64,000 bases of DNA from an uncultured Gammaproteobacteria bacterium. GTDB lineage: Bacteria; Pseudomonadota; Gammaproteobacteria; Eutrophobiales; Eutrophobiaceae. The stretch's first letter is position 1. The number at the start of each line of letters is the position of its first letter. The translations under genes and the position numbers were made by a program. Positions 166-64,000 of this stretch are shown piece after piece. The stretch covers positions 152,825-216,824 of the forward strand of contig CATOTD010000003.1 in the NCBI GenBank assembly GCA_951812995.1. The letters are read 5' to 3'. The notes under the pieces are model-generated. The model saw nothing but the letters and a program-made list of their open reading frames with translations, did not search any database and was not told the origin of the DNA.

Positions 166-300
166 CCTGCTACCTTGCCGCCGACAAGGAAGTCAGCCTC
201 GGTCGCGCCTTTGAGGCGGTCATCATCGCCAGCGTTTTTGGGCTTGGCCAAGCCGACCGACCCCTATATTAAAAAAATAGGCCGCACATCAACCGCCCTA
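166..300 (-). repeat. Conserved 3' flank of giant gene 1 (identical copy downstream of gene 2 at 44707..44840)
   Basis: About 135 bp, gccgccgacaaggaagtcagcctcggtcgcgcctttgaggcggtcatcatcgccagcgtttttgggcttggccaagccgaccgacccctatattaaaaaaataggccgcacatcaaccgcc, virtually identical at both loci. It contains the palindrome ggcttggccaagcc. It is non-coding (the best ORF is 18 aa). Confidence 0.7.
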
Positions 301-44490: not shown

Positions 44491-44660
44491 GGGTGTTCTC
44501 CATGATGCTTGATTATTAAATAAGTTTAATGGCTAACATGTTTGGTAACTTAACTGCCCTTAATGATGCTACAGCTATCGCTTGTCTGTCAATAGACAAT
44601 CTTTGTGATTAGACAACAATACTGAGGCGGGCGGTCGCCCACTGATGACACGGCTTCAAG
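44491..44660 (-). promoter_or_regulatory. Conserved leader/promoter block upstream of giant gene 1
   Basis: About 85% identical to 55373..55545 upstream of gene 2 (gtttaat.gctaacatgtttggt ... gcccttaatgatgctacagctat.gcttg.ctgtcaa.agacaa.ctttg..att..acaacaatactgaggcgggc.gtcgcc). On the coding strand it contains a TTGACA hexamer. GGAGA RBS before the GTG. Confidence 0.4.
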
Positions 44661-44706: not shown

Positions 44707-44840
44707 CTATCTGCCAGCCGCCGACAAGGAAGTCAGCCTCGGTCGCGCCTTTGAGGCGGTCATCATCGCCAGCGTTTTTGGGCTTGGCCAAGCCGACCGA
44801 CCCCTATATTAAAAAATAGGCCGCACATCAACCGCCTTAA
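44707..44840 (-). repeat. Conserved 3' flank of giant gene 2 (copy of 166..300)
   Basis: See the 166..300 feature. It is preceded by a ccttgcta x3 direct repeat at about 44688..44712. Confidence 0.7.
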
Positions 44841-47800: not shown

Positions 47801-50800
47801 GTCATCGCCATCACCGCCGTTTAAGGTATCGATGCCATCGCCGCCGTAGAGTGTGTCATCGCCCGTGCCGCCGTAGAGTGTGTCATCGCCCGCATCGCCG
47901 TTTAAGGTATCCGCATCGCCGCCGCCCATGAGGTGGTCATCACCCGCGCCGCCGTCCAGCCGATTGACCCCAGCATCGCCAATAAGCACATCGTCATGGA
48001 TTGAGCCGATGAGATTTTCGATACTGGAGAGTGTATCGCCCCGTGCATCGGTCACCACGGTGTTGGTGGCATTGGTCGTCTGTGCATCGGCCTTGGTCAG
48101 ATTGACATACACGCCGGTTATGGCTACATCAGCCGCAAGCCCGCTGTCTGCCGCTAACACGGTGTACGCCATACCGGTCGCTGCCGCCACCGCATACGAG
48201 GCCGTATCTATGTCATCGCCGCCGTCCAATGTGTCACCACCCGCGCCGCCATATAAAGTGTCATTGCCCGCGCCGCCGTTTAAGATATCAACACCCGCAT
48301 CGCCGATAAGCGTGTCATCTCCCCCCTCGCCGTTTAAGGTATCACCGCCGCCGTTGCCAGCTAACTCATTAGCATTCGCATCGCCGGTTAGCGTGTCGGC
48401 ATGGGTTGAGCCATCAATGTTTTCGATGTTGAGCAAAATATCACCCACTGCCCAGCCGCGGGCGTTCTGCGTATTGTCACCCAAGTTTACCGTAACACCC
48501 GCCAATGCCCCGGCATAGCTCACGGTATCGACACCGCCCTTGCCATCGATAATATCGGCGTTGGCGGTGATTTGGACACCTTGAAAGATCTCATCGGTGT
48601 CATCGCCAATGATCGCGCCGCTGTTGAAGTTCACGCGGTGTACCGTGGGGGTGGAGTCTAGCCCGTCCGCATCAGTCAACACGATCGAAAATTCGCGCAC
48701 GCCATTGTTGGCGGTTTTTGGATCGGTATTGTCATAGCGCAAGGTAGCGAGGATGGCCTCGACCTCAATGGTCGTGAGCTCGCTGTTGTCGGTCTTGGTT
48801 ACGGTAATGGTGTTCGCGGTATTATCCCAGACAATGTTAAGGCCGGTGATACCGGCAATCGTCACATCGCGGGCATCGTCATTGGCCGCCCCGCCTATCG
48901 CCAGTACCGTACCCGTACCATAGGCCAGTTGTTCGTTGCCATCGGTATCCAAGCCCGTTGCGGTAATCGTAATCGTGCTTATCGTTGCCGTCAGCGGCAG
49001 TTCGATGACCTGTACGCCGTCATCCCCATAAGCACTAACCAGGGCGTAGGCACGGCCGTCGATGACCGTGGTCGTGATGTCCTCTGCACCATGCAGTGCG
49101 GTATTGTCACCATCATCAGTAATCGCGGTCACCGCGATTGGGTTCTCGGGATCAGATATATCAATGATCTGTACCCCGCCATCATCATCGCTACCATAGG
49201 TGGTGCCCAGGGCGTAGGTCTTACCGGCGATGACTATGGTCGTGATACCGTATACGCCATCCAGTACGAAGCCATTTTGTTCATCGTAAATCGCGGTCGT
49301 GGGCGTGGGATTGTGTGGGTCGCTGATGTCGATAATCTGTACCCCGTCATCATTATTGGCGGTGACCAGCGCGTAGGTCTTGCCAGCGATCTTCACCGTG
49401 GTGATGGCGATTGCACCATCCAGGGCGGTCTTGTCACCATCATCAGTAATCGCGGCCGTGGGCGTGGGATCATCCGGGTCGGAGATGTCGATGATCTGTA
49501 CCCCGTCATCATCATAGGCGGCGACCAGCGCGTAGGTCTTGCCGCCCACCACCACCGTGGTGATGGCGGTGGCACCCAACAGTGCGGTGTAGCCGCCCTC
49601 GCCATCGCTAATCGCAGCCGTGGGCTTGGGCTTGTTCGGGTCGGTGATGTCGATGATCTGTACCCCATCATCATCATAGGCGGCGACCAGCGCGTAGGTC
49701 GCATCGCTGATCTTCACCGTGGTGATGGCGCGCCCGCCACCGAGTGCGGTGTAGGGGCTATCCTCATCCTGGTTGTCATCAGTAATCGCGGCCGTGGGCT
49801 TAGGCATGGCGGGATTGGAGATGTCAATGATCTGTACCCTATCCTCACCCTCGGCGGCGACCAGGGCGTAGGTACGCGGCACACCGGTCGGGTCATCAAT
49901 GACCACCGTGGTGATGGAATATGCGCCCTTAAGTGCGGTGTAGCCGCCTTTGTCATCGGTAATCGTGGCCGTGGGCATGGGATTGTCCGGATCGGAGATG
50001 TTGAGTATCTGTACCCCGTTACTATCATGGGCGGCGACCAGGGCGTAGGGAATGCCGCCGATGACCACCGTGGTGATGGACTCTGGAGACTCCAGCGCGG
50101 TGTCGTCGGTAATATTGCCCCTTGCCACCGGGGCCTGTAAGACGACATCATCGCCCGCCGTGGCCTTAGCTCCCAAGACCACACCCGTGGTCAATGCCGC
50201 ATTGTTGAGTATGCTGTAGGGGGTTTGTAGTGCCAAGGTGGGCGGTATGGGGGCGTAGATAAAATCATCGTCCGTCAACGCCCCTTCCAAGACCCCAGTC
50301 AGCGTGATGGTGTTGCCAAGACGGGTGGTGATGACCGTGTTGCCATTGCCATCATCTTCTGTCACAGCCTGTACTGCGGCAAAGTTAGTTAAACCAACAA
50401 TGGCAGACAGATCGATTATATTGTTACCGTTGGTAAAATCGGCAATGACATCTACACCATGACCTGGGGCAAAGACAAACCTATCCGCACCCGCACCGCC
50501 TTCAAGCACGTCATCGCCCATACCGCCGGTCAAGACATTGGCTTGTTTATCGCCAGTCAGTTCGTCGTTGTGGTCGGAGCCGATGAGGTTCTCAATATTG
50601 GTGAGCACATCGCCTTTAGCCCAGCCATTGGCATTATTGTTATTGTCGGACAAGTCCACGGTAACACCGGCATCAGAATTGGTATAGCTCACAGTATCTG
50701 TGCCACCTTGACCATCGAAGTGTTCATGACCCGCGGTGGCCGTGTAGGTATTAGCCCCCGCATCGCCGATAAAACTGTGGACGCGGTGGGCGTTACTGTC

Positions 50801-53800
50801 TACTACTGCCACATGGGTGAGGATGGCAGGGTTACCCGCAATGTCGGTAATGTTGCCCGTGATGGCATTGGCATCAATGCTGATACCATCGACATCGGTG
50901 TCCTCATCAACCACCGTATAACGAAAGACCAGCGTGGTCGGACTAGATAGCACACCCACATAGCGGATCTGTTTGGGCGTGCCGCCAATATCAATGCTGA
51001 TCGTTGGCGCGCGGCCGATAATGCTGATCGCCTCATTAAAAGTGACCGTGATGATGATGTTGTCGCCAGTAACGTAGCTACCATTTGGGTTGGCATTGGG
51101 GGTAATCGCGATATTGTCTATGGTCGGGCGAGTGGTTTTGATCCTGATCTCACCTTCATTGCGGCCAGTATCGTCATTGCTATTAACAAGAGAGACATTG
51201 CCCGCCACATCGGTTTGGCGTACCTGTATACGGCCTACTGCATAAGTTCCATCGGCAAGGTTAAAGCTGTTGCCCATACCAGGTCTCCAGTTCCCGCCGC
51301 CATCAATCGAGTACTCCCAGGTGGCACCCGCTTCAATACCTGCGACATTGATGGTCGGGTTATTGGTGATGCCGTCATTGATCGTGATGGTGCCAGGGGT
51401 CAGGGCGAAAGCCGGAGCAGTCGGACTGGTGGTGTCGATGGTCAGGATAAAGGGCACACTGGTAGCACTGGCAGCGATGACATTACCGTCTCCATCCACC
51501 GCCACCACTTGGGCGCGAAAACTCGGTGTCGCACCATCGGGCAAGGCGGACGGGGTGTACGTCCAGGCCATGCTGGCACCCAGGGTGGCCGCATCGATCG
51601 TGTGCAACAAGGTAGCACCATTGTATATCCGTATGACTTCATTAGCATTCAAGGCCGCGGTGATGGTGCCGCTTAAGGTCGGGGTGGTGTCGTCCGTTAC
51701 ACCGTTGTTGGCCAAGTCATCTATCTTGCTACCAACATTATCCTCGGCAGCGTCTATGGTGACGGTGGTGTTCAGTCGCGGTAATTGCGCATCGACTTGT
51801 TTAGTGAGGTCGGGGCCAACGGTTGTATGGGCAAGGGTGGCATCATTACCGGCCGTGTCTTTGATCGTGGCACCGACAGGCAATACAATGTTTCTGGTCG
51901 TGATGCTGATGCCATTGTTGTCGCTGTCGCCGACCACGGGGCTGTAGCTAAAAACCAGTTGGGTGGTGCCATTGCCACTTTCATAGTCGGCCTGTTTGTT
52001 CGTGCCGCCAATATTGATGAAGATATGCGGCACACCGACCACTGTGACTGCTTCATTAAAGGTAAGCGTGATTTCAATAGGCTCACCGGTATTAAAGGTA
52101 TTGCCTGCACGCGGTGTGTTGATGGCAATGCCCGTTACCGACGGGGCCGTGGTGTCATAGATGATTTGGGCATCATTGCTACCGACCTCCGATATATTGC
52201 CCGCCACATCGGTCTGGCGGACGCGGATGGCATTGGCGTTATAGGTGCCCTCGGCGGTGCCGAGGTTGAAGCTTGTGCCCGTGCCGTCTTGCCAGCTATC
52301 ATTGTTGATGGAATACTCCCAGGTCGCACCCGCTTCAAGGTCGGTAACCGTGACAGTCCGGTTATTGGTGCGGTTGTCACCTACTGTGCCGGTGTCGGTA
52401 AAGGTGATGCCGGGGGGCAAGGCCTCGGTGTCGATGGTGATTGCCGTGGTCGTGCCCGCGCGTGATACATTACCGGCCGCATCGGTTTGGCGCACCTGAA
52501 TATCATCCGCGTTGTAGGTGATGTTGGTACCTAGTTCAAAGGTGTTGCCCACGCCCTTTTTCCAGTCGGGCGTGCCATCATTGCCATTGATTGTATATTC
52601 CCAGGTCGCACCCGCTTCAAGACCCGTGACCGTGATGGTTGGGTTATTGGTAATGCGGTCGCTGGTATTGGTGCCCGTGTCGATAAAGGTGATGCCGGGG
52701 GGCAAGGCCTCGGTGTCTATGGTGATGGGGTTGGCATTGTTACCCGCGGTGGATTGATTGCCGGCCACATCGGTTTGGCGGACGCGGATGGCATTGGCGC
52801 TATAGGTGCCATCGTCGGTGCCGAGGCTGAAGGTTGTGCCCGTGCCAGCTCGCCAGTCGGGCGTGCCATCATTGCCATTGATTGTATATTCCCAGGTCGC
52901 ACCCGCTTCAAGACCCGTGACCGTGATAGTCGGGTTGTTGCTGATGTTGTCGCTGGTATTGGTGCCCGTATCGATAAAGGTGATACCAGGGGGCAAGGCC
53001 TCGGTGTCGATGGTAATCTTCGTGGTCGTGCCCACGCGTGATCTATTACCCGCCGCATCGGTTTGGCGTACCTGAATATCACCCGCTTCGTAACTGGGGT
53101 TGGTTAGTTCAAAGGTGGTGTCCGTGCCTGGGTTCCAGTTCGTGCCGCTGTCTGTTGAGTACTCCCAAGTCGCACCTGCTTCAATATTCCTCACCGTCAT
53201 AGTCGGATCGGAAGTAATACCATCAGCGATGTTAGTGTCATCGGCCAAGGCCAGACCAGGTGCCGATGGCGCGCGGGTGTCGATGGTCAAGGTAAAGGTG
53301 GCGGGGACACCAAAGGTGTTGGTGTCTGTATTGACTACCTGAATGCGATAGCTGGCAGTCGCACCATGACCCAAGGCCGGGGTTTGTGTGTACGTCCAGT
53401 TCTGACCATCTACGGTCGCCGTGCCGAGTAATACGCCATTGTTGTAAACCTGTACGACTTCATTGGTGGCCAGGGGCGCGCTAATGGTACCGCTTAAGGT
53501 CGGGGTGGTGTCGTTGGTGGTATTGCCCGTGTCTAAATCCGTTGGGGAAGCAAGTACGTCCGCGGCATTGCTACCAACATTATCCGCAGCCCCTGTAATC
53601 TCGACGGTCGTGGTGATCTCATCCGCCGTGGTCGTGGTGTCAACCGCCTTGTCGGTCGCGGCGGCAACGGCATCATGGTCACGGTTGGCATCATTGCCCG
53701 CAGTATCGGTGATCGTACCACCGTTTAAGTTAAGACTGTTCTCGGCAATACTGATGCCATCAGCATCGTTTTCACCGTCTTGCACGGTGTATTGAAAGGT

Positions 53801-55372
53801 CAGCGTGTCAGTGGCCGTGGTGCCACCGGTATAGCGCGCCGTGCGAGTGTTGGTGCCGATAAGAATGTCTATGGTCGGCGTGCCCGTTACGATGACATCC
53901 TCACTAAAAGTCACCGTGATGGTGATGACCTCATTCACCACAAACGCCGTGCCTGAGGCTGGATTGCTAATGGTCACCGCACTGATGGTTGGGGGCGTGT
54001 CGTCAACAGTCAGTTCAACATCGGTACTCGCACTCGTCGCACCATCCTCCAGACGCTTGGCAGCATCAGGCGACAAGCCCTCTTCAGTTATTTCATCTTT
54101 TAATTCATCAAGGGCTTCGCCCGTTGTTTTTGACTCGCCTTCTTCTACGCCCGAGACCGCCGCCAGTGCCTTGCCGTATTCGTTGGCGGCATCGTCACCC
54201 GTCGTTGGCTTGCCGTCTTTATCCACCGTCAGCTTGACCGGGCTCGATACCAGGTCATCAGCATCAGCTGTGTCATCATCACCCGTGATACCAAAGGACT
54301 TGGCAACCGCGGCTTGTGCATCGGTGACGGCTTCGGGAGTGATGTCCGTGATACTGGTTGCAGAGGCACCGTTATCACCACCGGCAAGACCAACCTTACG
54401 CGTGGCCAGCTCGGTCAAGGGGTTGATATTGGCCGTCTTGGTCGCACCCGCTGCCGGAGCCTCAACAATCACCCGCAAGTCGCTGGTCAGGTCTTTGTCT
54501 GCCTTCGTTGCTTCGTCTCGGTAGTCGGCGGCGGGGTTGGTGTCTATGACCTTAATCAGGATAAGGCCAGCATAGGCGCGGGTGATGGTGACCGTGTAGG
54601 TGCCATCATCATTGACCTTGGTCGTGCCAAGTTCGGTGCCATCGGCCGCATAGACAGTCACCGTCAACCCATCACCGGCAATCACCGGACCGGCCGTGAC
54701 AGCACCGCTTACGGTAAAGCCGACGGGGGTGGGCGTGTCGCCGCCGCCATCACCACCCGCGGGTGTGGTAGCACCACTGCTACTGCCCCCACCACCCGCG
54801 GCAGCAACGCCACCGATTGCACCGAGTACGCCCAAGGCACCGAGTAGTGTCCCACTACCGATGCCGCCCTGGTCATCACCGCCGGTAGTCGTCTCGGCGG
54901 TTGTTGTCTCGGCGGTTGTTGTCTCGGCGGACATCATGACATCACCTGCAAGTTGTTGGTTCAATATATCTTCAAGCTCGCCGTTACCCGCGGCCAATGT
55001 CAGCAGTGCTTGCAACGCACCCTGGTCATGGGCCTGGACATAGATAAAGATACTCCCATCACTCAAGGCCGTGCCGCTTGTGGCGGGGGTGACGACATAC
55101 TCGCCATTGTCATCTGCGCTGTCTTGATGATGCGGCAAGGCGACCTGGCAGGATGTTGAATCGTCAACACAGGCCGTGTAGAAGTCTTCAAGAATGACGA
55201 CCGTGCCATCGGCGTAGTGCAGGACCAAGTCGTCCCCTTCACGCATGACCAGCACATTGGTCTTGAGCGTGAGATTGTCTATATCGGTGATGCGGTAATG
55301 GGTGCTGACCTCGGTCTGGATGCGGTTGGTATTGCCGCTTATGGGATTGATGACAACAGGCTTGGATGACAT
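44837..55372 (-). CDS. Giant T1SS-type repetitive adhesin paralog (3,511 aa) with the same N-terminal prefix domain, Ig-like domains, 2 RTX/LVIVD supermodules and the same C-terminal secretion domain
   Basis: Uninterrupted 10.5-kb ORF. ATG start at 55372 with GAGGA RBS. N-terminal about 140 aa and C-terminal about 90 aa are near-identical to the 14,730-aa protein. Internal [10 protein letters not shown](T/A)LRY linker domains occur twice. Stop is TAA at the position homologous to the TAG of gene 1. Confidence 0.9.
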   Translation of the reverse strand: MSSKPVVINPISGNTNRIQTEVSTHYRITDIDNLTLKTNVLVMREGDDLVLHYADGTVVILEDFYTACVDDSTSCQVALPHHQDSADDNGEYVVTPATSGTALSDGSIFIYVQAHDQGALQALLTLAAGNGELEDILNQQLAGDVMMSAETTTAETTTAETTTGGDDQGGIGSGTLLGALGVLGAIGGVAAAGGGGSSSGATTPAGGDGGGDTPTPVGFTVSGAVTAGPVIAGDGLTVTVYAADGTELGTTKVNDDGTYTVTITRAYAGLILIKVIDTNPAADYRDEATKADKDLTSDLRVIVEAPAAGATKTANINPLTELATRKVGLAGGDNGASATSITDITPEAVTDAQAAVAKSFGITGDDDTADADDLVSSPVKLTVDKDGKPTTGDDAANEYGKALAAVSGVEEGESKTTGEALDELKDEITEEGLSPDAAKRLEDGATSASTDVELTVDDTPPTISAVTISNPASGTAFVVNEVITITVTFSEDVIVTGTPTIDILIGTNTRTARYTGGTTATDTLTFQYTVQDGENDADGISIAENSLNLNGGTITDTAGNDANRDHDAVAAATDKAVDTTTTADEITTTVEITGAADNVGSNAADVLASPTDLDTGNTTNDTTPTLSGTISAPLATNEVVQVYNNGVLLGTATVDGQNWTYTQTPALGHGATASYRIQVVNTDTNTFGVPATFTLTIDTRAPSAPGLALADDTNIADGITSDPTMTVRNIEAGATWEYSTDSGTNWNPGTDTTFELTNPSYEAGDIQVRQTDAAGNRSRVGTTTKITIDTEALPPGITFIDTGTNTSDNISNNPTITVTGLEAGATWEYTINGNDGTPDWRAGTGTTFSLGTDDGTYSANAIRVRQTDVAGNQSTAGNNANPITIDTEALPPGITFIDTGTNTSDRITNNPTITVTGLEAGATWEYTINGNDGTPDWKKGVGNTFELGTNITYNADDIQVRQTDAAGNVSRAGTTTAITIDTEALPPGITFTDTGTVGDNRTNNRTVTVTDLEAGATWEYSINNDSWQDGTGTSFNLGTAEGTYNANAIRVRQTDVAGNISEVGSNDAQIIYDTTAPSVTGIAINTPRAGNTFNTGEPIEITLTFNEAVTVVGVPHIFINIGGTNKQADYESGNGTTQLVFSYSPVVGDSDNNGISITTRNIVLPVGATIKDTAGNDATLAHTTVGPDLTKQVDAQLPRLNTTVTIDAAEDNVGSKIDDLANNGVTDDTTPTLSGTITAALNANEVIRIYNGATLLHTIDAATLGASMAWTYTPSALPDGATPSFRAQVVAVDGDGNVIAASATSVPFILTIDTTSPTAPAFALTPGTITINDGITNNPTINVAGIEAGATWEYSIDGGGNWRPGMGNSFNLADGTYAVGRIQVRQTDVAGNVSLVNSNDDTGRNEGEIRIKTTRPTIDNIAITPNANPNGSYVTGDNIIITVTFNEAISIIGRAPTISIDIGGTPKQIRYVGVLSSPTTLVFRYTVVDEDTDVDGISIDANAITGNITDIAGNPAILTHVAVVDSNAHRVHSFIGDAGANTYTATAGHEHFDGQGGTDTVSYTNSDAGVTVDLSDNNNNANGWAKGDVLTNIENLIGSDHNDELTGDKQANVLTGGMGDDVLEGGAGADRFVFAPGHGVDVIADFTNGNNIIDLSAIVGLTNFAAVQAVTEDDGNGNTVITTRLGNTITLTGVLEGALTDDDFIYAPIPPTLALQTPYSILNNAALTTGVVLGAKATAGDDVVLQAPVARGNITDDTALESPESITTVVIGGIPYALVAAHDSNGVQILNISDPDNPMPTATITDDKGGYTALKGAYSITTVVIDDPTGVPRTYALVAAEGEDRVQIIDISNPAMPKPTAAITDDNQDEDSPYTALGGGRAITTVKISDATYALVAAYDDDGVQIIDITDPNKPKPTAAISDGEGGYTALLGATAITTVVVGGKTYALVAAYDDDGVQIIDISDPDDPTPTAAITDDGDKTALDGAIAITTVKIAGKTYALVTANNDDGVQIIDISDPHNPTPTTAIYDEQNGFVLDGVYGITTIVIAGKTYALGTTYGSDDDGGVQIIDISDPENPIAVTAITDDGDNTALHGAEDITTTVIDGRAYALVSAYGDDGVQVIELPLTATISTITITATGLDTDGNEQLAYGTGTVLAIGGAANDDARDVTIAGITGLNIVWDNTANTITVTKTDNSELTTIEVEAILATLRYDNTDPKTANNGVREFSIVLTDADGLDSTPTVHRVNFNSGAIIGDDTDEIFQGVQITANADIIDGKGGVDTVSYAGALAGVTVNLGDNTQNARGWAVGDILLNIENIDGSTHADTLTGDANANELAGNGGGDTLNGEGGDDTLIGDAGVDILNGGAGNDTLYGGAGGDTLDGGDDIDTASYAVAAATGMAYTVLAADSGLAADVAITGVYVNLTKADAQTTNATNTVVTDARGDTLSSIENLIGSIHDDVLIGDAGVNRLDGGAGDDHLMGGGDADTLNGDAGDDTLYGGTGDDTLYGGDGIDTLNGGDGDDVLFGDAGDDTLNGGDGNDWLIGGADNDTFIGGAGNDTLIGGAGTDTASYENATEVAPYIVAADAVNRLATAVAGVTGVYVNLNKVGTAQTLGNTDATDDRLIDIENLIGSAHNDVLIGDRDVNRLDGADGNDTLYGGAGDDTLISGAEDDTLTGGAGDDTLTGGADDDTFVFAAGHGADTITDFTTGNNKIDLSAIPGFTNLKAVQDATVDDGNGNTVITTSKGNTIKLEGILKGALTDDHFIYAERSDPSSLALKTTYSILDDAALTAGVALGAKATAGDDVALQALVARGNIENNGGDIKLSNPESITTVVIGGIPYALVTSWIFDEVQILNISKPAMPTPTASISDDDDDETAVALVSPYAITTVKIGVSTYALVAADGDDGVQIIDISNPNKPKPTVAITDGATFTALDGAQGITTVNIGDATYALVAAYWDDGVQIIDISDPAMPTATAAIVDNNKDADSPYTTLNGATAITTVVVGGKTYALVAAYGDNGVQIINITTPAAPSHVAAITDSTADANTPYTALDGAIAITTVVIADKTYALVAAYWDDGVQIIDISNPHKPTPTAAIVDDNQDANSPFTALNGARAITTVMIAGKTYALVAAYVDDGVQIIDISDPKKPTPAGTITNADANTLLDGAEDITTTVIDGRAYALVSAYNDDSVQVIELPLFPTISTITITATGLDNSNEQLVYGSNAMGVDLTLAIGGNDASLSDVTIAGITGIDIAWVDADDTITVTKTDNSELTTIEVEAILAALRYDNTNVADATDRVREFSIVLTDLDGNPSTAVVHSVNFNSGATIGDDAGLSYAATANADLIDGKGGVDTVSYDQSDAGVTVDLSDNTQNAKGWAADDVLLNIENLIGSAQADTLTGDANANRLEGGAGIDTLTGGAGADRFVLDTNALAADTDIITDFNTGQNDRIQIDTVTGLENTLAALNLAVADNGDHANIVSADDHTLVYMTIQNIDHTLISDATFTDYFSVI

Positions 55373-55545
55373 GGATGTTCCTCTGTGGTGGATTGTTAAA
55401 CAGGTTTAATCGCTAACATGTTTGGTGTTTAAGTCTAGTGGCGCGTTGCCCTTAATGATGCTACAGCTATGGCTTGCCTGTCAACAGACAACCTTTGCAA
55501 TTACACAACAATACTGAGGCGGGCAGTCGCCTCAATATTGATGTG
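55373..55545 (-). promoter_or_regulatory. Conserved leader/promoter block upstream of giant gene 2
   Basis: Same conserved block as 44491..44660. GAGGA RBS before the ATG. An IS256-type inverted repeat begins only about 215 bp upstream of the start codon. Confidence 0.4.
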
Positions 55546-55617
55546 GGTACGGGGTGATGATGAGGCTGTGTGTCGTAATCGCTGAACCTTTCCCGAACTC
55601 TGTGTAACTGCCGTTGG

Positions 55618-55803
55618 TTAAACGAAATTCTTTAGTCGGTCTTCGAATTCGATCATAAAGCGATTCATCGCTGGTTTCCAATATTTAATCGGCATAGTCC
55701 ACTTCTTTGATGCATCTTGAATGGCCAGATAGATCACCTTTCTGGTAGCGTCATCGGTTGGAAACAACTTAAGGCAACCTCTATTAATGCAATCACTTTC
55801 CAA
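55618..55803 (-). pseudogene. IS256-family transposase, C-terminal fragment
   Basis: MESDCINRGCLKLFPTDDATRKVIYLAIQDASKKWTMPIKYWKPAMNRFMIEFEDRL is the C-terminal end of IS256/mutator-type transposases. It is separated from the rest of the gene by the IS5-family insertion. Confidence 0.7.
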
Positions 55804-56852
55804 TTTATTGGCTCAGAGAGGTTAAAAAAACCAATTTGATCCAAAAAGCCGGTAGTGTCCGTACAGCCCTGTTCTCGGCTTTACTTCGTTTTCAAGACGC
55901 ACTGACCCGTTCCAGAAAGCATAAACGCCTCATGTTGTACCTTAGATTCATCAAGCCGATATGCATGTTTGTGCGCGTAATGCCAATGCAAGGAACCGCT
56001 TTGCGGTGTAAATTGCGCTGTGCTCCAAACACAGGTTCGACCCGACTACGAACTTTGGAGCGCGTGCGCTTACCTTGCGCCTTGAGAAACGCTACTTTTT
56101 CCTCTGACCGATAGGCACTGTCAGCCCAGACATCTTTACTGGTATTGCTGTCATCTGGCAGGTCGGCAAAAACCTGCGCGTCATGGACGCTGGCATCAGT
56201 GACCTGATAGTCACGAATCAACTTGTTGTCATGGTCTATCTGGCTGTGGTTCTTGTAAGCAAAATGGCGGCAGCTATGTTTCTTCGTCCAGCGGACAGGG
56301 ACAGCGCCTGCCTTAATCCGTGCATTGTCTTCCCAACGGTTACGCGGCAACAGTGCCGGAATGATCGAGGAGGCAACTATCTGACCCTTGCGAGTGATAT
56401 AAGCCGCCTGGTTCAACGACAACTGCTCAAACAACGATGCCATCAGACCCAGCGCCGCTAACCGATGCTTGAATGCCCAGCAGGTTTTGGTATCAGCGAC
56501 TCGTTGCTGCCTAGCAAGACCCAGAAACTGCTGAAAACTGCAACGGTCTTCGATTTGGTATTCCAACTGAGCATCGCTAAGACCATACAGATTTTGCACA
56601 AGCAGTCCCTTGAACATCATCACTACGTTTGTTGGGCGTTGCCCGCCTGACGCTTACGTTGTTTCTCATGAACCTTGTTCAACAACGACCGAAAAGATCC
56701 CCAGTCAACCGTCTTTTCCAGTTCAGGCAGAGGATTACCCAACTGTTTGAGACGATAGTCTTGAAGATTAAACAGAGAACCGAAAATGTCATTGCTCATG
56801 GAAGTTTCTTTGTCAGTTTGGAAACTTCAACATTGTACCAAATAGAGTCATT
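55786..56852 (-). mobile_element. IS5-family insertion sequence (~1.07 kb) nested inside the IS256 transposase gene
   Basis: It splits the IS256 Tnp between ...IRKAIKKRKG and LFPTDDATRK.... It is flanked by ATTAAT/TTAA at 55782-55787 and 56850-56855 and by short inverted tctattaatg motifs. It carries an IS5-family DDE transposase. Confidence 0.55.
55892..56799 (-). pseudogene. IS5-family DDE transposase (~301 aa) with an in-frame TAG after codon 58
   Basis: N-terminal MSNDIFGSLFNLQDYRLKQLGNPLPELEKTVDWGSFRSLLNKVHEKQRKRQAGNAQQT, then TAG, then in the same frame VMMFKGLLVQNLYGLSDAQLEYQIEDRCSFQQFLGL...IVASSIIPA...ADSAYRSEE.... These are typical IS5/IS4-superfamily motifs. Confidence 0.7.
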
Positions 56853-57591
56853 AATAGATATCCCTTTACGTTTTTTGATAGCTTTCCTGATGACGCTGTT
56901 GAGCGATGCAATGGCGTTGGTGGTATAGATTGTCTTGCGCATGTCCTGCGGGTAATCAAACAGGGTGTTGAGGTTCTGCCAATGACTCTGCCAGGAACGG
57001 CTGGTCTTAGGGTATTTGGCATCCCATTCGTCACCAAAGACATCAAGCACCAACAGTGCTTCCGCCTCCGTAGCTGACGGGTAGATTTGCTACAAGTCGA
57101 CTACAACCGCCTTGTAGTCCTTCCAGGTAACATACTGCATCGCGTGCCTGATCCTATGCACAATGCATCGCTAGATGCGGGTTTGCGGGTAGACGGTATT
57201 GATGAGATCAGGAAAACTCTTGAGTCCGTCAACACAGGCAATCAGGATGTCTCGTACACCGCGGTTATGAAGTTCGGTCAAGACATTGAGCCAGAACTTG
57301 GCACCTTCGTGCTCTGACAGCCACAGCCCTAAAAGCGCTTTGTGCCCGTCCAGGTTCACGCCCAGTGCCAGATAGACAGCCTTGTTGATGACTTTCTTGT
57401 CCTGGCGGATTTTAACGACTATGCAGTCAAGGTATGCGCTGGGGTATATCAGCACCAGTGGCCGATTGCCACGCAATCACCTTTGCTGTCACGCGCGAGA
57501 GCAGACTGGTTGAGACCGCCACGCCCTACATTTCCTGAAACAGCGCGACAATGTCACAGGTGGTATTGCCTTTGGCATAGAGACTGAGAAC
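56850..57591 (-). pseudogene. IS256-family transposase, central fragments (frameshifted; in-frame TAG in FQEM*GV)
   Basis: ORFs 56796..57053 and 57171..57476 plus an upstream frame reading IGLVLSLYAKGNTTCDIVALFQEM*GVAVSTSLLSRVTAKVIAWQS. It needs at least 2 frameshifts and has one in-frame amber at a conserved Tyr position. Confidence 0.6.
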
Positions 57592-58817
57592 TAGACCTAT
57601 CACGGTTTAATGCCGCATGGAACTCTCACTTTAACCCCGTTCTTCTCTCGAAGGCAACGGGGCTTTTACAACCCAGTGCCAAATGCATTCGATGTTAAGT
57701 TGTAAAACCATTGATGTACTGGCATATCCACGTCTCGGCTTGCCGACGGGTTTTCCAGTCCTGCCGCCATATAAGCTCGGCCTGCATCGTCTTGAAGAAA
57801 GACTCAACAACAACATTATCATAACAATCCCCTTTGCTACTCATAGACATCTGCAAGCCATGCTCACACAATATCCGCTGATAATTATACGCACAGTACT
57901 GACTACCCCTGTCCGTATGATGAATACTCCCCTTTGATGGTGTCCTGAGAGTAATGTAATCGCCATCTGCAAGGCCCTGATGGTCAACTCACCTTCCAGC
58001 CAATCACTCGCCTTTAATACAAATCAAGCACTACGGCCAGATATAACCATCCTTCTGAAGTCCAGATGTAGCTTATGTCCCCCGCCTACTTCTGGTTCGG
58101 GAACTCCGCTGCGAACTCTCGCTTCAGTAAATTCGATACCGTGGCGAACTTATGCTCGCTGTTCGTCGTCACCTTGAACTTATGCGTCCTTTTCGGTGTG
58201 ATGCCGTTTTCACGCATCAGACGGCCAACACGACGATGACCAACAGCTATACCGGACTGCTGCAACGCCTCGGTCATTCCTGGACGACCATAACTGTCCA
58301 GGTTCATACCCGAATGCTCCTTGATATAGGCCAAAACAACCTCATCCTGGCGTTGCCGGTCACTGGCCGGGTGTGAACTATACGCCCGGAACTTGTGCTC
58401 ACATTCATGAGCGCACATAACCGTGTCACCGAAAAATGCCCCCTATGTTCTTCAACAAACCTAAACCTCACGGCTTTAGACTCACAAAGAACTGGGTGGC
58501 TTTTTTTTAATATCTCCCTCTCCTCCCTAAGTATCCGATACTCACGCAGATGCCGATTATTCTCAAGCGCAAGGCTCCGATCTGTATCCAAATCAACTTC
58601 ACTGTCACGGTATGTGACTATCCATTTGCTTAAGCGCGACAGCCCAACACCCAAATCTTCCGTAACCTGACAACGCGATAAACCGCTCGTCAAAGCAATG
58701 CGTACCGCATCCTGACGAAACGCGTCCGTCCTTACTGTTCTTACTGTACCCATAACTCTATCTCCTTTACTGCACGTTATACTCTCATTCGTGCGGCATT
58801 AAATTGTGACAAGTCCA
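57592..58817 (-). mobile_element. IS3-family insertion sequence (~1.2 kb), decayed
   Basis: Imperfect terminal inverted repeats ga.ct.gac.t.tcac..tttaatgccgca at 57588..57622 and 58793..58821 (reverse complement). The outer ends begin TGGAC/TAGAC. OrfA-OrfB transposase organisation. Confidence 0.65.
57626..58753 (-). pseudogene. IS3-family transposase OrfAB with multiple frameshifts and in-frame stops
   Basis: OrfA HTH region (LGVGLSRLSKW...LALENNRHLREYRILREEREILKKS). OrfB blocks: RVGRLMRENGITPKRTHKFKVTTNSEHKFATVSNLLKREFAAEFPNQK, then TAG in place of the conserved Trp, then AGDISYIWTSEGWLYLAVVLDL; after a frameshift GHHQRGVFIIRTGVVSTVRIIISGYCVSMA; then SKGDCYDNVVVESFFKTMQAELIW and YINGFTT(TAA)HRMHLALGCKSPVAFE. 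Confidence 0.7.
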
Positions 58818-59037
58818 GATCGATCACAGATCGACTACACCCGACCACGCTAGCCCTACCACACCCCAACCCATGCCCAGTGGCTGAACATTGAGCTATT
58901 GCCAGATAAAAATATTCAAATGCGGTATTTTGTGCAACGGTCACACGCTGTCTTTTAGCGTTGCGTCATGTCATTGATGTTGCCCGTCTTTTCATTCAAA
59001 ATGGGCGCATCATTTTATTTACTATTTAATCGTACCT

Positions 59038-60243
59038 ATGGAAACCTATTTGGTCGGCGGGGCTGTTCGGAACAAACTACTTGGCATCCCGGTTAAAGAT
59101 CGAGATTGGGTCGTTGTCGGTGCAACACCAGAAGAGATGCTGGCGCAAGGTTTTAAGCCAGTCGGTAAAGATTTTCCGGTATTTTTACATCCAGAGACCA
59201 AAGAAGAATACGCACTGGCGCGCACCGAACGTAAGTCGGGCAAGGGTTATAAGGGTTTCACCTTCCATACTTCACCTACTATTACGCTGGAAGAAGATCT
59301 GCTGCGCCGGGATCTCACCATCAATGCCATGGCCGAAGATGTTGCTGGCAATCTGATTGATCCCTATGTCGGCGAGTCTGATCTGAAAAAAAAATTATTA
59401 CGCCACGTCTCCCCCGCATTTGTCGAAGACCCCTTGCGGGTTGTGCGTATCGCACGATTTGCCGCAAGCCTCGGTTTCAATATCGCGCCAGAGACAATGG
59501 CTTTATTGAAAACTATGGTAGCGTCTGATGAATTAAATACATTGGTGCCAGAGCGTGTCTGGGCCGAGATGGAGACGGCGTTGGCGGCAAAATATCCCGC
59601 GCGGTTTATTCTGGCACTACAATCATGCGATGCATTGAAAAAACTTTTTCCTGAGATACAAGCCTTGTTTGGCGTACCGCAGACAAAAGCATATCATCCG
59701 GAGATCGATACCGGCTTACATACCATCATGAGCTTGAATCAATCAACACGTCTATCATCAGATCCCATGGTACGCTTTGCTGTGTTGGTGCATGATCTTG
59801 GTAAGGGGACAACGCCAAAAGATAAATTGCCGAGTCATCATGGTCATGAAAAACGGGGTGCGCGCATCATTGACAAGCTGTGTCAACGTTACCGTATTCC
59901 GAATAAATTCCGAGAACTCGCGATGCATGTTTCAACATTTCATCTCGATTGCCATCGCATACAAGAGATGACACCTAAAACAATAGTAAAAAAACTAGAA
60001 CACCTTGATGCCTTTAGAAGACCTGAACGCTTTGCACAATTTCTCACCGCTTGCGAAGCCGATGCCCGTGGTCGTGCCGGTTTTGAAGACCGAGCGTACC
60101 CACAAGCTGAATATTTCAAGCGTGCATTACAGGCGGCTAACAACGTTGATGTCAGCGTATTACAAAAACAGGGGTTACAAGATAAAGCACTTGGGGATGC
60201 AATCAGAAAGCAACGAATAAGCAATATTAAACAGCTACATTAA
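59038..60243 (+). CDS. cca: Multifunctional CCA-adding enzyme (tRNA nucleotidyltransferase / 2',3'-cyclic phosphodiesterase / phosphatase)
   Basis: 401 aa, METYLVGGAVRNKLLGIPVKDRDWVVVGATPEEM...FPVFLHPETKEEYALARTERKSG.GY.GF... plus a C-terminal HD domain (HPEIDTGLHT, HDLGKG). Colinear with E. coli Cca. Confidence 0.9.
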   Translation: METYLVGGAVRNKLLGIPVKDRDWVVVGATPEEMLAQGFKPVGKDFPVFLHPETKEEYALARTERKSGKGYKGFTFHTSPTITLEEDLLRRDLTINAMAEDVAGNLIDPYVGESDLKKKLLRHVSPAFVEDPLRVVRIARFAASLGFNIAPETMALLKTMVASDELNTLVPERVWAEMETALAAKYPARFILALQSCDALKKLFPEIQALFGVPQTKAYHPEIDTGLHTIMSLNQSTRLSSDPMVRFAVLVHDLGKGTTPKDKLPSHHGHEKRGARIIDKLCQRYRIPNKFRELAMHVSTFHLDCHRIQEMTPKTIVKKLEHLDAFRRPERFAQFLTACEADARGRAGFEDRAYPQAEYFKRALQAANNVDVSVLQKQGLQDKALGDAIRKQRISNIKQLH

Positions 60244-61040
60244 ATAAAGACAATAAATAACATGATACCCAATAGCACGCGATAAATGACAAACGGCAAC
60301 ATTCCAATCTTATCGATAAATCCCATGAAAATATGAATGGCAACCAGCGCACTGATGGCAGAAAGTAGTGCGGTAACAACAAAACTCATCATGTCAACGC
60401 CGCCACCGAGTTGAATTAACTTTAATAACTCATAACCGCCTGCGGCTGCGATGATGGGCACGGCCATTAAAAAAGAAAGACGTGCCGCACTTGTTCGATC
60501 TAGGCCTAATATTAATGCTGCCGTCATCGTGATCCCCGAACGCGACGTGCCTGGAATCAAAGCCAATGCCTGTGCAAATCCGATGATGATCGCATCACGC
60601 ATATTGATTGAATCTATTTTTCGTTGCCGCCTACCTTGTGCATCCGCATACCAAAGTAATAAACCAAACACGATAGATGTACCGGCTATAACTAACGGCG
60701 CGCGTAAATAAAGGGCGATAATGTTTCTTAAAATGAAACCGGAAGCTAAAACTGGAATACTGGCAACAGCCAAATACCAAAATAATTTACTGTCTGAAGT
60801 TGTGGGTGCTTTGCCAGCGATTGAATCTATCCCGGCAAGTAATATGCGGTATATATCTTTTCTTAAATAAAAGACCACGGCAAATAAACTGCCAAAATGT
60901 GCTGCTACATCAATAGCTAGGCCTTGATCAGCCCAGTTTGTCAATAACGGAACAAGTATCAAGTGTGCTGAACTTGAGACCGGCAAGAACTCAGTTAGGC
61001 CCTGAATTAATGCAAGAATGATGAGTTGTGTTAAATCCAA
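60240..61040 (-). CDS. uppP: Undecaprenyl-diphosphate phosphatase (BacA/UppP)
   Basis: 266 aa polytopic membrane protein, ALIQGLTEFLPVSSSAHL...GTSRSGITMTAALILGLDR. Canonical BacA motifs. Convergent with cca, overlapping it by 4 nt. Confidence 0.9.
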   Translation of the reverse strand: MDLTQLIILALIQGLTEFLPVSSSAHLILVPLLTNWADQGLAIDVAAHFGSLFAVVFYLRKDIYRILLAGIDSIAGKAPTTSDSKLFWYLAVASIPVLASGFILRNIIALYLRAPLVIAGTSIVFGLLLWYADAQGRRQRKIDSINMRDAIIIGFAQALALIPGTSRSGITMTAALILGLDRTSAARLSFLMAVPIIAAAGGYELLKLIQLGGGVDMMSFVVTALLSAISALVAIHIFMGFIDKIGMLPFVIYRVLLGIMLFIVFI

Positions 61041-61289
61041 TTTTAAATAGGTAAGAAAATTGCCGAGGCCATGCGCTGTATAATTCGGGTAATCGTTTTA
61101 TTATTTTTGTCCGCTATTATTGCCGCAATCTCGATGTTCCTGGCGCAATTATACAATTTCTGCGGGTCTACTGAATCAAGTATATAAAATCCGATTTATA
61201 ATCATAGGATTTCATAATCATTGACAGCAAGGATGACAAAAAATAATGCTGTAATGATAATCGTAGCCTTGTATGCAAACCCACTCATG

Positions 61290-62489
61290 TTACAAGCGTA
61301 CACGTTGATCCATTAATGTAAAACCTTGGGGGGCGTAATCATACTTTTTAGTCAGCGCCATCACCTTAAAACGCTCACCCATGGCTTCAGGCATCGTTAG
61401 CGTACGTACTTGTTGTGCTATTTTTGTTTGTGTTTTGATATCATCCGCATGCACTTTTGCAAGTAAACTCTCCAAGCCGCAAGCGCACAAGAAGTAAGTT
61501 TGATTCGTATAACCACTGACATGCAAGCCTATCGAATCGGCACACTCAGCAACAGCAGTGAAATTGACGGAACTCGTTATATCTTGCAGCCCAGCATAGA
61601 AGAATGGATCATCATGCACCCGATGTCGATAATGGCACAACAAACTGCCAGCCGTTTTTTTTGGATGATAATACTCTGCTGCGCAATCGCCATAGTCAAT
61701 GAACAACATTACGCCTCGCGCAAGCGTCCGCTCTAAAGCACGCAACCATGACCCAAGACGGATATTGATCTCAGATATGAACCCTGCTGGCAATAGCACG
61801 GATAATGTATCCTCAAGTCGTCGCAGTTCCTCTGTGAGACTGCTATCGGCCACCGTTTCAACCCAGATAAAATCGTTGTCATCAAAACCGACTTTTAATT
61901 CTCTATAACCATCCGCCGTCTTTCTAAATCGTTTCACCGGCAATGCATCTAACACTTCGTTTGCCAATATAATGCCCGATACACCTGCCGCTGGTAATGC
62001 GTCTAACCAGACAACGCGATCGATGTAATGAGGGAGTGCTTCATTAATGAGTGCTTGTTGTCGTTGTTTTAGATCAGCACTTACCTCAAGGATGAAATAC
62101 TGTTCGGGTAATGTATTTTGCTTTTCTAATGCCAGCAACAGATCTCTCGCCATGATGCCCGTACCAGCACCTAGCTCCAAGATTGCGCCTGCTCCGATTA
62201 TATCTAATATTTGTGCACATTGATTCGCCAGGCATTGTGAAAATAGCGACGATAATTCTGGTGCCGTAACAAAGTCGCCCTCTGGTCCAAATTTACGACT
62301 GCCCGCACTGTAGTAACCTAAACCAGGTTCGTACAATGCCATATTCATGTATTCGTCAAAACCAATCATGCCGCCTTGCTTGCGTATAGACGTTTTAATG
62401 TGCTCAATTAGCATTCCACTTTGTCGCAATGCAACAGGTCCTGGCAGCGGCAGTTTTGTTTCAGCCTGTAATGGACTTGATTTTATCAT
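61290..62489 (-). CDS. Class I SAM-dependent methyltransferase, DUF185 / MidA (NDUFAF7-like) family
   Basis: YYSAGSRKFGPEGDFVTAPELSSLFSQCLA...ILELGAGTGIMARDLLLAL... matches the DUF185 family architecture. The ORF is open to 62594, but the internal Met at 62489 (MIKSSPLQ...) is preceded by a purine-rich RBS-like stretch and is the likelier start. Confidence 0.75.
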   Translation of the reverse strand: MIKSSPLQAETKLPLPGPVALRQSGMLIEHIKTSIRKQGGMIGFDEYMNMALYEPGLGYYSAGSRKFGPEGDFVTAPELSSLFSQCLANQCAQILDIIGAGAILELGAGTGIMARDLLLALEKQNTLPEQYFILEVSADLKQRQQALINEALPHYIDRVVWLDALPAAGVSGIILANEVLDALPVKRFRKTADGYRELKVGFDDNDFIWVETVADSSLTEELRRLEDTLSVLLPAGFISEINIRLGSWLRALERTLARGVMLFIDYGDCAAEYYHPKKTAGSLLCHYRHRVHDDPFFYAGLQDITSSVNFTAVAECADSIGLHVSGYTNQTYFLCACGLESLLAKVHADDIKTQTKIAQQVRTLTMPEAMGERFKVMALTKKYDYAPQGFTLMDQRVRL

Positions 62490-62742
62490 GACAATACCCT
62501 TGTTATTCTGTTGCTGATGATCCAATTTCTGATGATCCAATCTGTAGGTGCCACTCTTAACGAGTGACACATTGGCCGTCTGCGTTATGCGCACCGCTTT
62601 CTATCCAAACGCATGACAATATATAAATCCGGTAGCTGACCACAGCCCTTGATGTTGGCAATCGTGGTAACCGTTAGGTCTATGGTGACTGAAACGGTGT
62701 ACTTGGCAAAGGTCGGGTGTTGGGCAAACAATACATCGGCTG

Positions 62743-62919
62743 CTATCCCGGGATCTCACCAGCCGAGCCTTGGGTACCATCCTGCCAGGTAAATGCACCA
62801 CGTCTGGCTAATTGACCATCGCCTTGTTGGTCGGTGACCGACTCATGGGTTAATGAGATACTAACTATGCCCGCATCCGTAGTTAGTATAAAACCTTTTC
62901 CCGGATGATAAGTTGCCAT
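62743..62919 (-). CDS. Hypothetical small protein (58 aa), possibly a gene remnant
   Basis: ATG...TAG ORF MATYHPGKGFILTTDAGIVSISLTHESVTDQQGDGQLARRGAFTWQDGTQGSAGEIPG. No recognisable domain. It lies in the DUF185 upstream region. Confidence 0.15.
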   Translation of the reverse strand: MATYHPGKGFILTTDAGIVSISLTHESVTDQQGDGQLARRGAFTWQDGTQGSAGEIPG

Positions 62920-62993
62920 TGGTATGGGAATTATGTATTTAACTTGACAAAATAACTGATTATTTTACTTCTTTTAGTGTGGGTTGAGATAGC

Positions 62994-63365
62994 CCCAAAA
63001 ACTGTGTAACTGCTTATCATTGATTATTGCCCCGAAGGGGCTGAGGATAAGCACATGCAACCCGAAGCAATCAAGTCACTGGCACGTGAAACTGAAAGGG
63101 GCATCAAAACCGCAGAAGACCTGCATACGTTCCGTCAGGCATTGACCAGGGTAAGCATTGAGACAGCGCTGAATGCCGAGCTTGATGAACACCTTGGCTA
63201 TGCCAGGCATGAGTAGGCCGGAAAATCCAATAGCCGCAATGGTCGCAGTCATAAAATGCTGCGCACTGAAGAGGGCGTATTCGAGCTGGAAACACCCCGC
63301 GACAGAAAGGGTAGCTTTGCGCCAGCACTGGTCAAGCAGCACCCATCTGGAAGCCTCTAAAAACC
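62994..63365 (+). mobile_element. IS256-family element, 5' end only (terminal repeat + N-terminal ~105 codons of transposase), truncated by an IS5-family insertion
   Basis: Terminal repeat ccccaaaaactgtgtaactgc at 62994..63013, matching the repeat at 55592..55612. The transposase N-terminus starts at 63055 (MQPEAIKSLARETERGIKTAEDLHTFRQALTRVSIETALNAELDEHLGYARHE, then TAG, then [42 protein letters not shown]). It is complementary to the portion missing from the minus-strand IS256 copy. Confidence 0.6.
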
Positions 63366-63416
63366 GTACATTTTGTGGTACGATCTGATTCACTTGATGT
63401 GGGAGGATTTTGTTTA

Positions 63417-64000
63417 TGCACGCACCCGGATTGTTTGATTTGACGGATCATTTGGCGCGGCTTTCGGCGATGGGAGATCCGCTTGAGGTTTTGGAGCGGC
63501 ACGTTGATTTCGAAGTGTTTCGCCCAGTTCTTGTTGAAGCACTTGGCTATGGGGAACGTCCCAAAGGTGGTCGCCCGCCCTATGATGCCGTTGTGATGTT
63601 CAAGGTGCTGGTCTTGGCCTCGATGCACAATCTGAGCGATGAGCGGATGGAGTTTCTCATTCGTGACCGTTTCAGTTGGTTGCGGTTCCTGGGATTTCAA
63701 ATCGGGGAGCCGACACCTGATCAGAAGACGATCTGGCTTTTCAGAGAGAAGCTGACCCAGGCGGGTGTCTTCAAGGCCCTTTTTGCCGCGTTTGAAGCTC
63801 AGCTGTGCGCGCGGGGATACAAACCGACCGGCGGTCAGATTGTGGATGCCACGTTGGTCTTTGCCCCGCGCCAGCGGATGACGAAAGCAGAGAAAGCGCG
63901 CGCCAAGGCAGGCGAGGCCGCATCTGACATCTGGCCCGATGATCTGTCCAAGGCAGCGCAGAAAGACACCGATGCGCGTTGGACGGTCAAGTATTCAAAG
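63417..64000 (+). CDS. IS5-family (IS5-group) DDE transposase, N-terminal part; continues beyond the window
   Basis: MHAPGLFDLTDHLARLSAMGDPLEVLERHVDFEVFRPVLVEALGYGERPKGGRPPYDAVVMFKVLVLASMHNLSDERMEFLIRDRFSWLRFLGF...GQIVDATLVFAPRQ...KDTDARWTVKYSK. This is the classic IS5 transposase N-terminal region. The ORF is open at the window end. Confidence 0.75.

Follow-up and report, generated by a model that had tools for sequence, protein, structure and literature searches.

When a rearrangement arises by replicative intramolecular transposition or by homologous recombination, each of its two junctions carries the same insertion sequence (IS). In genomes in which ISs have expanded, nested insertions and IS decay also occur, giving rise to "IS graveyards", and in the composite transposon Tn4001 inverted IS256 copies surround the cargo. 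A large IS256-bounded inversion is described in S. aureus OC8, where 1 Mb is bounded by two whole, oppositely oriented copies of IS256 (PMC5065196).

The locus considered here, at the right-hand end of a 64,000-bp window (the whole stretch of DNA that was analyzed) from a gammaproteobacterial genome, has features in common with each of these systems. As in inversions produced by homologous recombination between opposed IS copies, such as that of S. aureus OC8 (PMC5065196), ISs lie at the segment boundaries, the context differs from that of relatives, one IS (here an IS3-family element) has no target duplication, and a single IS256-family lineage, abundant in the genome, offers substrates for recombination. 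Known inversions, however, have the same whole IS in inverted orientation at both ends, with exchanged 8-bp duplications, whereas the window shows an IS3-family element at one boundary and one of the IS5 family at the other, a split IS256, a gap of 24 bp, and no sign of exchanged duplications. If the two IS256 pieces are independent, they bracket a 4.2-kb gene block as two inverted copies, much as in Tn4001-type transposons; unlike these, the block carries core housekeeping genes whose internal order is the ancestral one, both elements are dead, IS3 has taken the place of one inner end, the outer end of the right-hand copy lies outside the window, and there is no evidence of mobility for the block. 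From IS graveyards nothing essential differs: five IS-derived pieces of three families lie within 8.4 kb, some IS inside IS, with stops and frameshifts that are common to copies and with high copy number; the sole oddity is that two IS256 breaks fall within 8 codons of each other. The region is an IS graveyard and, whichever history applies, ordinary IS debris.

Two IS256-family pieces and their neighboring elements

The IS256-family element on the minus strand, copy A, spans 55584..57591, is decayed, and contains a nested IS5-family element. Its 3' end (55584..55772) comprises the right terminal repeat, GAACCTTTCCCGAACTCTGTGTAACTGC, whose tip is placed at ~55584 by comparison with reference elements L085-L089, and transposase codons ~353-402 at 55621..55770 (tblastn, residues 353-402 of P0121 aligning to 55770..55621). 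The middle part (56865..57591, minus strand) covers codons 107 to ~353; it contains three TAG stops in frame and one or more frameshifts, and begins exactly at reference codon 107 (VLSLYAKG, 57591), where a dead IS3-family element ends. The first-pass annotation had this copy resuming at the LSLYAKG block right at the IS3 end, which holds, and lacking its N-terminal ~110 codons; the absence is confirmed, but amounts to 106 codons.

The N-terminal piece (62987..63348, plus strand) consists of a left terminal repeat (...CCCCAAAAACTGTGTAACTGC), whose tip can be placed only to within a few bases and whose outermost 8 nt match the reference elements poorly, an ATG at 63055, and codons 1-98. It has one in-frame TAG, at codon 54, common to nearly all other copies in the genome, and ends ...PALVKQHPS (63348) against an IS5-family element starting at 63349. 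The earlier description of a plus-strand fragment at 62994..63365, with a terminal repeat and the N-terminal ~105 codons, stands as to the presence of these features, but its coordinates are now ~62987..63348, the final 17 bp being part of the IS5-family end GGAAGCC..., and the piece comprises 98 codons.

Both pieces belong to the IS256 family by the Mutator-type DDE transposase domain (Pfam Transposase_mut, PF00872), by terminal inverted repeats, and, taken together, by a length of ~1.3 kb. The N-terminal piece matches positions 14-95 of the profile (E=6e-17) and the C-terminal piece positions 107-377 (E=4e-71); aligned with 120 full-length 402-aa relatives, as had been recommended, they prove complementary, the former corresponding to residues 1-96 and the latter beginning at residue 107. 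They share no overlap and lie ~5.4 kb apart. Both terminal repeats read inward ...CTGTGTAACTGC on the plus strand, at 55600 and 63001, and this core is common to L085-L089; the pieces are thus in inverted orientation. Pfam, alignment, and terminal repeats therefore bear out the idea of complementary IS256 halves on opposite strands. By comparison with a paralogous ORF of the same genome (P0282), exactly 8 codons (RYTGMDDK, 24 bp) are missing between them, after HPS, in place of the ~12 residues once estimated to precede ILSLYAKG. A search of the whole window did not find these 24 bp. A count on the sequences puts the combined length of the two pieces and the 24 bp at ~1302 bp; reference L086 has 1307 bp. 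The highest identity of the pieces to full-length 402-aa IS256-family transposases is 69%; there is thus no near-identical master copy by which to define ends or compare DNA divergence.

Within copy A, the first IS5-family element (55773..56864, minus strand; Pfam DUF772 and DDE_Tnp_1, the domains expected of the family) sits between ...AIKKRKG and LFPTDD..., with IS256 continuing on both sides. It has the ends GGCAACCTCTATTAATG and CATTAATAGATATCC, with an imperfect 5-bp repeat, CTTAA/CTTTA, on either side.

The IS3-family element (57592..58817, minus strand, 1226 bp) is assigned to its family by a two-ORF transposase (Pfam HTH domains HTH_21 and HTH_Tnp_1), terminal repeats of the TG...CA type, and a length within ~1.2-1.5 kb. 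It is 66-69% identical in DNA to annotated IS3-family elements (blastn), the matches to transposases starting at 58817, and is also matched by reference OrfA/B in tblastn. Its decay is evident in the fusion of orfA/B into a 149-aa ORF and in an orfB with a frameshift and TAG/TAA stops. The terminal repeats are 26 nt long (TGGAC.../TAGAC...); the right end at 57592 is TAGACCTATCACGGTTTAATGCCGCA and the left end at 58817 is TGGACTTGTCACAATTTAATGCCGCA (reverse complement). A 3-bp target-site duplication is absent from its flanks (GTT and ATC in IS3 orientation), unlike in the related reference L091 (GGT/GGT), which points to a rearrangement at one IS3 end. Since IS256 in addition does not continue beyond IS3, some rearrangement ended exactly at the IS3 left end.

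The second IS5-family element (63349..64000, the window end; plus strand) cuts IS256 after codon 98. It has a putative left end GGAAGCC, a transposase ATG at 63416, an ORF of 194 codons that is still open at the window end, and a GC content of ~54%; only the DUF772 part falls within the window, and blastn matches it to annotated IS5-family transposases on alphaproteobacterial plasmids. The end at 63349 is defined by the stop of IS256 homology (63348) together with the GGAAG start, as no usable terminal repeats were found by way of a Sphingobium relative. No further IS copies were found elsewhere in the window.

Gene block, synteny, and IS copy number

Between the IS3-family element and the N-terminal IS256 piece lies a housekeeping block (58818..62986, genes on both strands) described from Pfam, tblastn, and synteny with relatives (L081-L084). 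It contains cca (59038..60243, plus strand), uppP/BacA (60240..61040, minus strand), a hypothetical gene remnant (61046..61242, minus strand), the gene for a MidA/DUF185 methyltransferase (61290..62489, minus strand), and ~500 bp of unique upstream DNA; cca, uppP, and MidA were identified by Pfam. The internal cca-uppP-MidA order is that of the relatives, but both ancestral neighbors (the SDR side and the epimerase/SLT side) are gone, and tblastn of the relatives' genes against the window detects no remnants of SDR, epimerase, GDT1, SLT, or others beside the block. Flanks unlike the conserved synteny of relatives on both sides fit repeated recombination among IS copies. In the nearest relatives, at 70-78% protein identity, the block has other surroundings on either side. 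The collections contain no close relative of the genome, the next-best MidA/DUF185 protein being 72% identical; among the matches listed in a search of genome contigs with the MidA alignment, relatives reach at most 53% identity. The region also adjoins two giant adhesin-like genes. Changes in GC skew track the limits of genes and ISs as well as codon usage, the third-position skews of the three genes having standard errors of ~0.1.

The IS256 lineage is abundant in the source genome. A 90%-identity cluster of at least 16 sequence variants, nearly all of which stop at the same TAG, includes the window's 53-aa N-terminal IS256 ORF; its members are found in 28 or more places, on contigs of 811639, 417378 (the source contig, with at least three copies), 345339, 254579, 189606, and 35196 bp. 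A 60-aa ORF that spans the gap between the pieces has 13 variants, which indicates that most copies are uninterrupted there. Given dozens of copies, including three or more on the source contig, it is not unlikely that two independent ones should lie 5 kb from each other. The first IS5-family element is likewise multi-copy (243-aa and 58-aa ORFs, with protein clusters of 15 and 5 variants). The IS3 OrfA cluster contains two variants only, the window's own and one on the 189606-bp contig, and no second distinct variant from the 417378-bp source contig is present in the protein collection. Both IS3 copies share the aberrant 149-aa ORF; the element was thus already dead at its last duplication.

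Independent copies or one split element

The best explanation, to which we give about half of our confidence, is that the two IS256 pieces are independent copies of the same lineage and that their near-fit to within 8 codons is a coincidence. Copy A would be an already dead, high-copy element that received an IS5-family element by simple insertion and, at codon 107, an IS3-family element. Subsequently a rearrangement at the IS3 left end, either by deletion or by recombination with a further copy of IS3, would have removed IS256 upstream of codon 107 and joined IS3 to DNA 220 bp upstream of cca. The plus-strand piece, 62987..63348, would be the start of a second, independent copy marking the other synteny break of the cca-uppP-MidA block; the still-open second IS5-family element would have inserted in it after codon 98, and the rest of this copy is expected beyond the window end. 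With its ORF open to the window end, this IS5-family element looks more like a simple insertion of recent date than the junction of an old rearrangement. Certain observations argue against independence. Break points 8 codons apart and a rebuilt length typical of the family amount to a few-per-cent coincidence on a rough estimate for two independent random breaks (a gap of ~20/402 codons, times 1/2 for the complementary side); as the small gap was noticed after scanning an IS-rich region, it is suggestive, not compelling. A second IS256 within 6 kb has a prior of ~0.1 at genome-average density, the local density being clearly higher. Nothing marks the pieces as different copies, as both have lineage-typical TAG stops and equal divergence: the N/C divergence ratio is 1.64, against 1.80 among 115 reference proteins, and such equality, after allowing for regional conservation, does not discriminate between one copy and two.

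The IS-mediated inversion of 57592..63365 put forward in the first-pass annotation is possible, and the split halves are indeed opposite in orientation and complementary; the IS pair at the junctions, the target duplication, and the lost 24 bp do not agree with it. The reciprocal junctions do not look conservative, given that RYTGMDDK is not encoded in the window; the 24 bp may lie past the second IS5-family element. The breakpoints within the window carry IS3 at one and an IS5-family element at the other instead of one IS inverted at both; a second IS3 may lie beyond the window. Re-inversion does not bring together an 8-9 bp IS256 target duplication: the outer flanks, TAATCGCT to the left of the right repeat and AACCCACA beside the left repeat, match at best 6/8 over all offsets, as do 58% of random pairs. 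Such a duplication is not expected if the pieces come from different copies or if flanks were exchanged earlier. As a one-step event, the inversion would have its junctions at IS256/IS3 right end and IS256/IS5 left end, IS3 would once have abutted IS5, and 24 bp would have been lost; it would directly account, by a single event, for IS256 breaks only 24 bp apart. We nevertheless regard it as very unlikely, since its junctions are ends of unrelated IS families, for which we know of no transposase or homologous-recombination route of pairing, target duplications are not exchanged, and the second IS5-family element looks like a young, intact insertion. Still less credible is a version in which the abutted IS3 right and IS5 left ends acted as a hybrid pair that attacked IS256, inverted 5.8 kb, and lost the 24 bp; if true, IS-mediated inversion of this type would be new.

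A more serious alternative, although a doubtful one, is that one IS256 was split by a local inversion through an inverted IS3 pair. An IS256 between the adhesin gene and MidA/DUF185 would have received IS3 at codon 107 and the second IS5-family element after codon 98, and homologous recombination with a second, inverted IS3 ~220 bp upstream of cca would have flipped the segment composed of the 24-bp middle piece, the IS5-family element, the IS256 N-terminal part, MidA, uppP, and cca. On this view the flipped stretch would extend from 58818 to just past this IS5-family element, leaving the 24 bp and the second IS3 outside the window. Such an inversion would account, with a single IS256 copy, for the orientation, complementarity, and proximity of the pieces, and also for their equal decay, for an IS3 without duplication, and for the stop of IS256 at the IS3 left end; copy A had already taken two other ISs, so a third 24 bp from the IS3 site is not far-fetched. 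The outer IS256 flanks, however, lack a target duplication, and that the IS3 and IS5 sites lie so near each other is no less coincidental than with independent copies. The second IS3 that would be left is not apparent for this low-copy element as a distinct OrfA variant on the source contig (an identical or broken copy may exist), and an IS3 dead at its last duplication would need transposase in trans for a local hop. An improbable variant of the explanation by independent copies invokes large-scale rearrangement via distant ISs: the missing N-terminal part of copy A would lie beside the other IS3 (the P0257 locus on the 189606-bp contig) or be deleted, and recombination among the dozens of IS256 copies would have placed the N-terminal piece in the window. 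The existence of that second IS3, on a contig that also carries N-terminal IS256 ORFs, and the fact that synteny ends exactly at ISs to the left and right of the block are in its favor, but nothing in the window specifically calls for it.

Beyond annotation the locus has little significance. An inversion, if true, would be one more ordinary IS-driven rearrangement in an IS-expanded gammaproteobacterial genome, and would help to reconstruct how the cca-uppP-MidA block left its neighbors and came to lie beside the giant adhesin-like genes. For an IS present in dozens of copies, fragments that complement each other do little to establish an inversion.

Two other candidates were rejected. Mobilization of IS3 and the gene block as one unit into IS256 would have left the IS256 halves in one shared orientation. 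Reassignment of TAG was considered because all four in-frame IS256 stops are TAG; the window has no tRNA gene, the IS3 stops are mixed, and a 14,730-aa gene itself ends in TAG.

Insertion sequences at the end of the window

Downstream of two giant ORFs on the minus strand, the final 8.4 kb of the window are made up of IS debris surrounding three housekeeping genes. A minus-strand IS256-family element (copy A, 55584..57591; right terminal repeat at ~55584) carries a nested IS5-family element (IS5#1, 55773..56864), with IS256 sequence on either side; the reading frame of copy A is interrupted by in-frame TAG codons and one or more frameshifts. Next come a minus-strand IS3-family element (57592..58817), with 26-nt terminal repeats (TAGACCTATCACGG... 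/ TGGACTTGTCACAA...), and unique DNA (58818..62986) containing cca (+), uppP (-), and the gene for a MidA/DUF185 methyltransferase (-). The left end of an IS256-family element, comprising codons 1-98, occupies 62987..63348 on the plus strand, and a plus-strand IS5-family element (IS5#2) extends from 63349 to the window end. A self-BLAST of this region against the whole window returned no further IS copies.

IS5#2 has a GC content of ~54%, compared with 41-47% in the housekeeping block, its best DNA matches are to alphaproteobacterial plasmids (Sphingobium, 69.6%), and its reading frame remains open; these sequence features suggest a recent arrival. The tandem giant ORFs, 298..44490 (-; 14,730 aa) and 44837..55372 (-; 3,511 aa), take up 86% of the window. 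Both are rich in repeats, adhesin/RTX-like in appearance as judged by eye, and strongly skewed in third-position GC on the coding strand (~-0.33). A 128-bp stretch of 80% identity is common to their upstream regions (55404..55531 versus 44524..44639).

Complementarity of the two IS256 pieces

The first-pass annotation described complementary halves of an IS256 transposase on opposite strands, and this is correct. In the Pfam Transposase_mut profile the plus-strand fragment (N piece) covers positions 14-95 and copy A (C piece) positions 107-377; in alignments to 120 full-length relatives of 402 aa the pieces correspond to residues 1-96 and 107-402. The gap was defined against P0282 (60 aa), an ORF of the same genome standing for a 13-variant cluster: the N piece stops after ...KQHPS at 63348, the C piece starts with (V/I)LSLYAKG at 57591, and exactly eight codons, RYTGMDDK, are missing between them. 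A search of the entire window did not find these 24 bp. Since both IS256 terminal repeats point inward on the plus strand, the pieces are mutually inverted. The boundaries first proposed shift slightly; for example, the last 17 bp of the interval 57592..63365 fall within the end of the IS5-family element.

Together with the 24 bp, the two pieces amount to ~1302 bp, compared with 1307 bp in a reference element. Their divergence from the reference proteins is equal when lower N-terminal conservation is allowed for (N/C ratio 1.64, versus 1.80 among reference proteins), and both bear TAG stops typical of the lineage. This likeness fits a single copy, and fits two copies from one lineage just as well.

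Rearrangement at the IS3 boundary

An IS3 left end lying on the plus strand would read TGGACTTGTCACAATTTAATGCCGCA. Flanked by ATC and GTT, IS3 lacks a 3-bp target duplication, whereas a related element has GGT/GGT; IS256 does not continue on the far side of the IS3 left end, and the 24 bp are absent from the window. Together these results firmly show that some rearrangement had one endpoint precisely at the left end of IS3. In the first IS3 ORF (58304..58753, -), OrfA is aberrantly fused to the beginning of OrfB, giving 149 aa. The genome's sole other IS3 copy (P0257) has the same form with five substitutions, so IS3 was already defective at its last duplication.

In relatives (70-78% protein identity) the conserved order is SDR(-) MidA(+) uppP(+) [GDT1] cca(-) epimerase(-) SLT(-). 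The block retains this inner order, but no remnant of its ancestral neighbours was found in the window on either side; with both neighbours lost, the block has been excised at IS boundaries on either side. The small GDT1 gene, located between uppP and cca in the relatives' loci (L081-L084), is missing, and the stop-codon ends of the convergent uppP and cca overlap by 4 bp (60240..60243). Between MidA and uppP is a hypothetical-gene remnant (61046..61242) that is 40% identical to a 244-aa protein encoded in L081. A 58-aa ORF (62743..62919, -) is located in the ~500 bp separating MidA from the IS256 left end; it forms a single-member cluster unique in the protein collection and is unrelated to the SDR gene occupying that position in relatives.

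The first-pass annotation explained the two IS256 halves by one inversion of 57592..63365, whose two junctions are the IS3 right end and the left end of IS5#2, an element of an unrelated family. Known IS-mediated inversions arise by recombination between inverted copies or by replicative intramolecular transposition, and either route leaves one and the same IS at the two ends; that exact geometry is therefore without a mechanism and highly improbable. A 1-Mb inversion in S. aureus OC8 is bounded by IS256 at both ends (PMC5065196), in contrast to the unrelated IS3 and IS5 ends here. The 24-bp closeness of the IS3 and IS5 sites would favour only this one-step model; it gives no preference between a workable inversion and independent copies, because both involve independent insertions. 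GC skew at this scale carries no information on inversion.

A workable inversion would use a second, inverted IS3 located just past IS5#2, with the missing 24 bp between them and IS5#2 as a simple insertion. We consider it possible though doubtful: the OrfA cluster has only two variants, that of the window (P0256) and P0257 on a separate 189,606-bp contig, which counts mildly against an IS3 pair, though a copy that is identical or broken would go unseen in this comparison. Splitting one IS256 accounts at no cost for the orientation, complementarity, and proximity of the pieces, but when the 8-9 bp outside the right repeat were compared, after re-inversion, with the reverse-complemented bases flanking the left repeat (all end offsets of ±8), no target duplication emerged (best match 6/8, equalled by 58% of random pairs). 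The IS256 lineage is also high-copy: the N-terminal 53-aa ORF, which ends at an in-frame TAG, belongs to a 90%-identity cluster of 16 variants, with at least 28 occurrences over contigs of one assembly, at least three of these being on the 417,378-bp source contig; for the gap-spanning ORF there are 13 variants. A region already holding five IS pieces could plausibly contain two separate copies within a few kb of each other. Copy number, local IS density, the lack of a target duplication and of a second IS3 variant to complete a pair, and synteny breaks falling exactly at IS boundaries thus favour two independent IS256 copies, a reading of middling confidence; variants of it involving distant IS copies are unlikely. 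Whichever explanation is true, nothing here is new in kind: IS256, IS3, and IS5 families, nested insertions, and IS-associated rearrangement are all well known.

In-frame TAG codons in the IS256 lineage

All four in-frame stops in the IS256 pieces (63214, 57528, 57173, and 57092) are TAG, and at least two (those following ...ARHE and ...FQEM) are common to the other genome copies (P0241-P0255, P0282), across 16 and 13 sequence variants and at least 28 occurrences. The protein collection yielded no intact transposase of the lineage; its best full-length relative there is 69% identical. It seems that this lineage reached dozens of copies while bearing common in-frame TAG codons, likely through mobilisation in trans from a since-lost master copy. 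In this genome TAG serves as an ordinary stop, since the 14,730-aa gene terminates in it.
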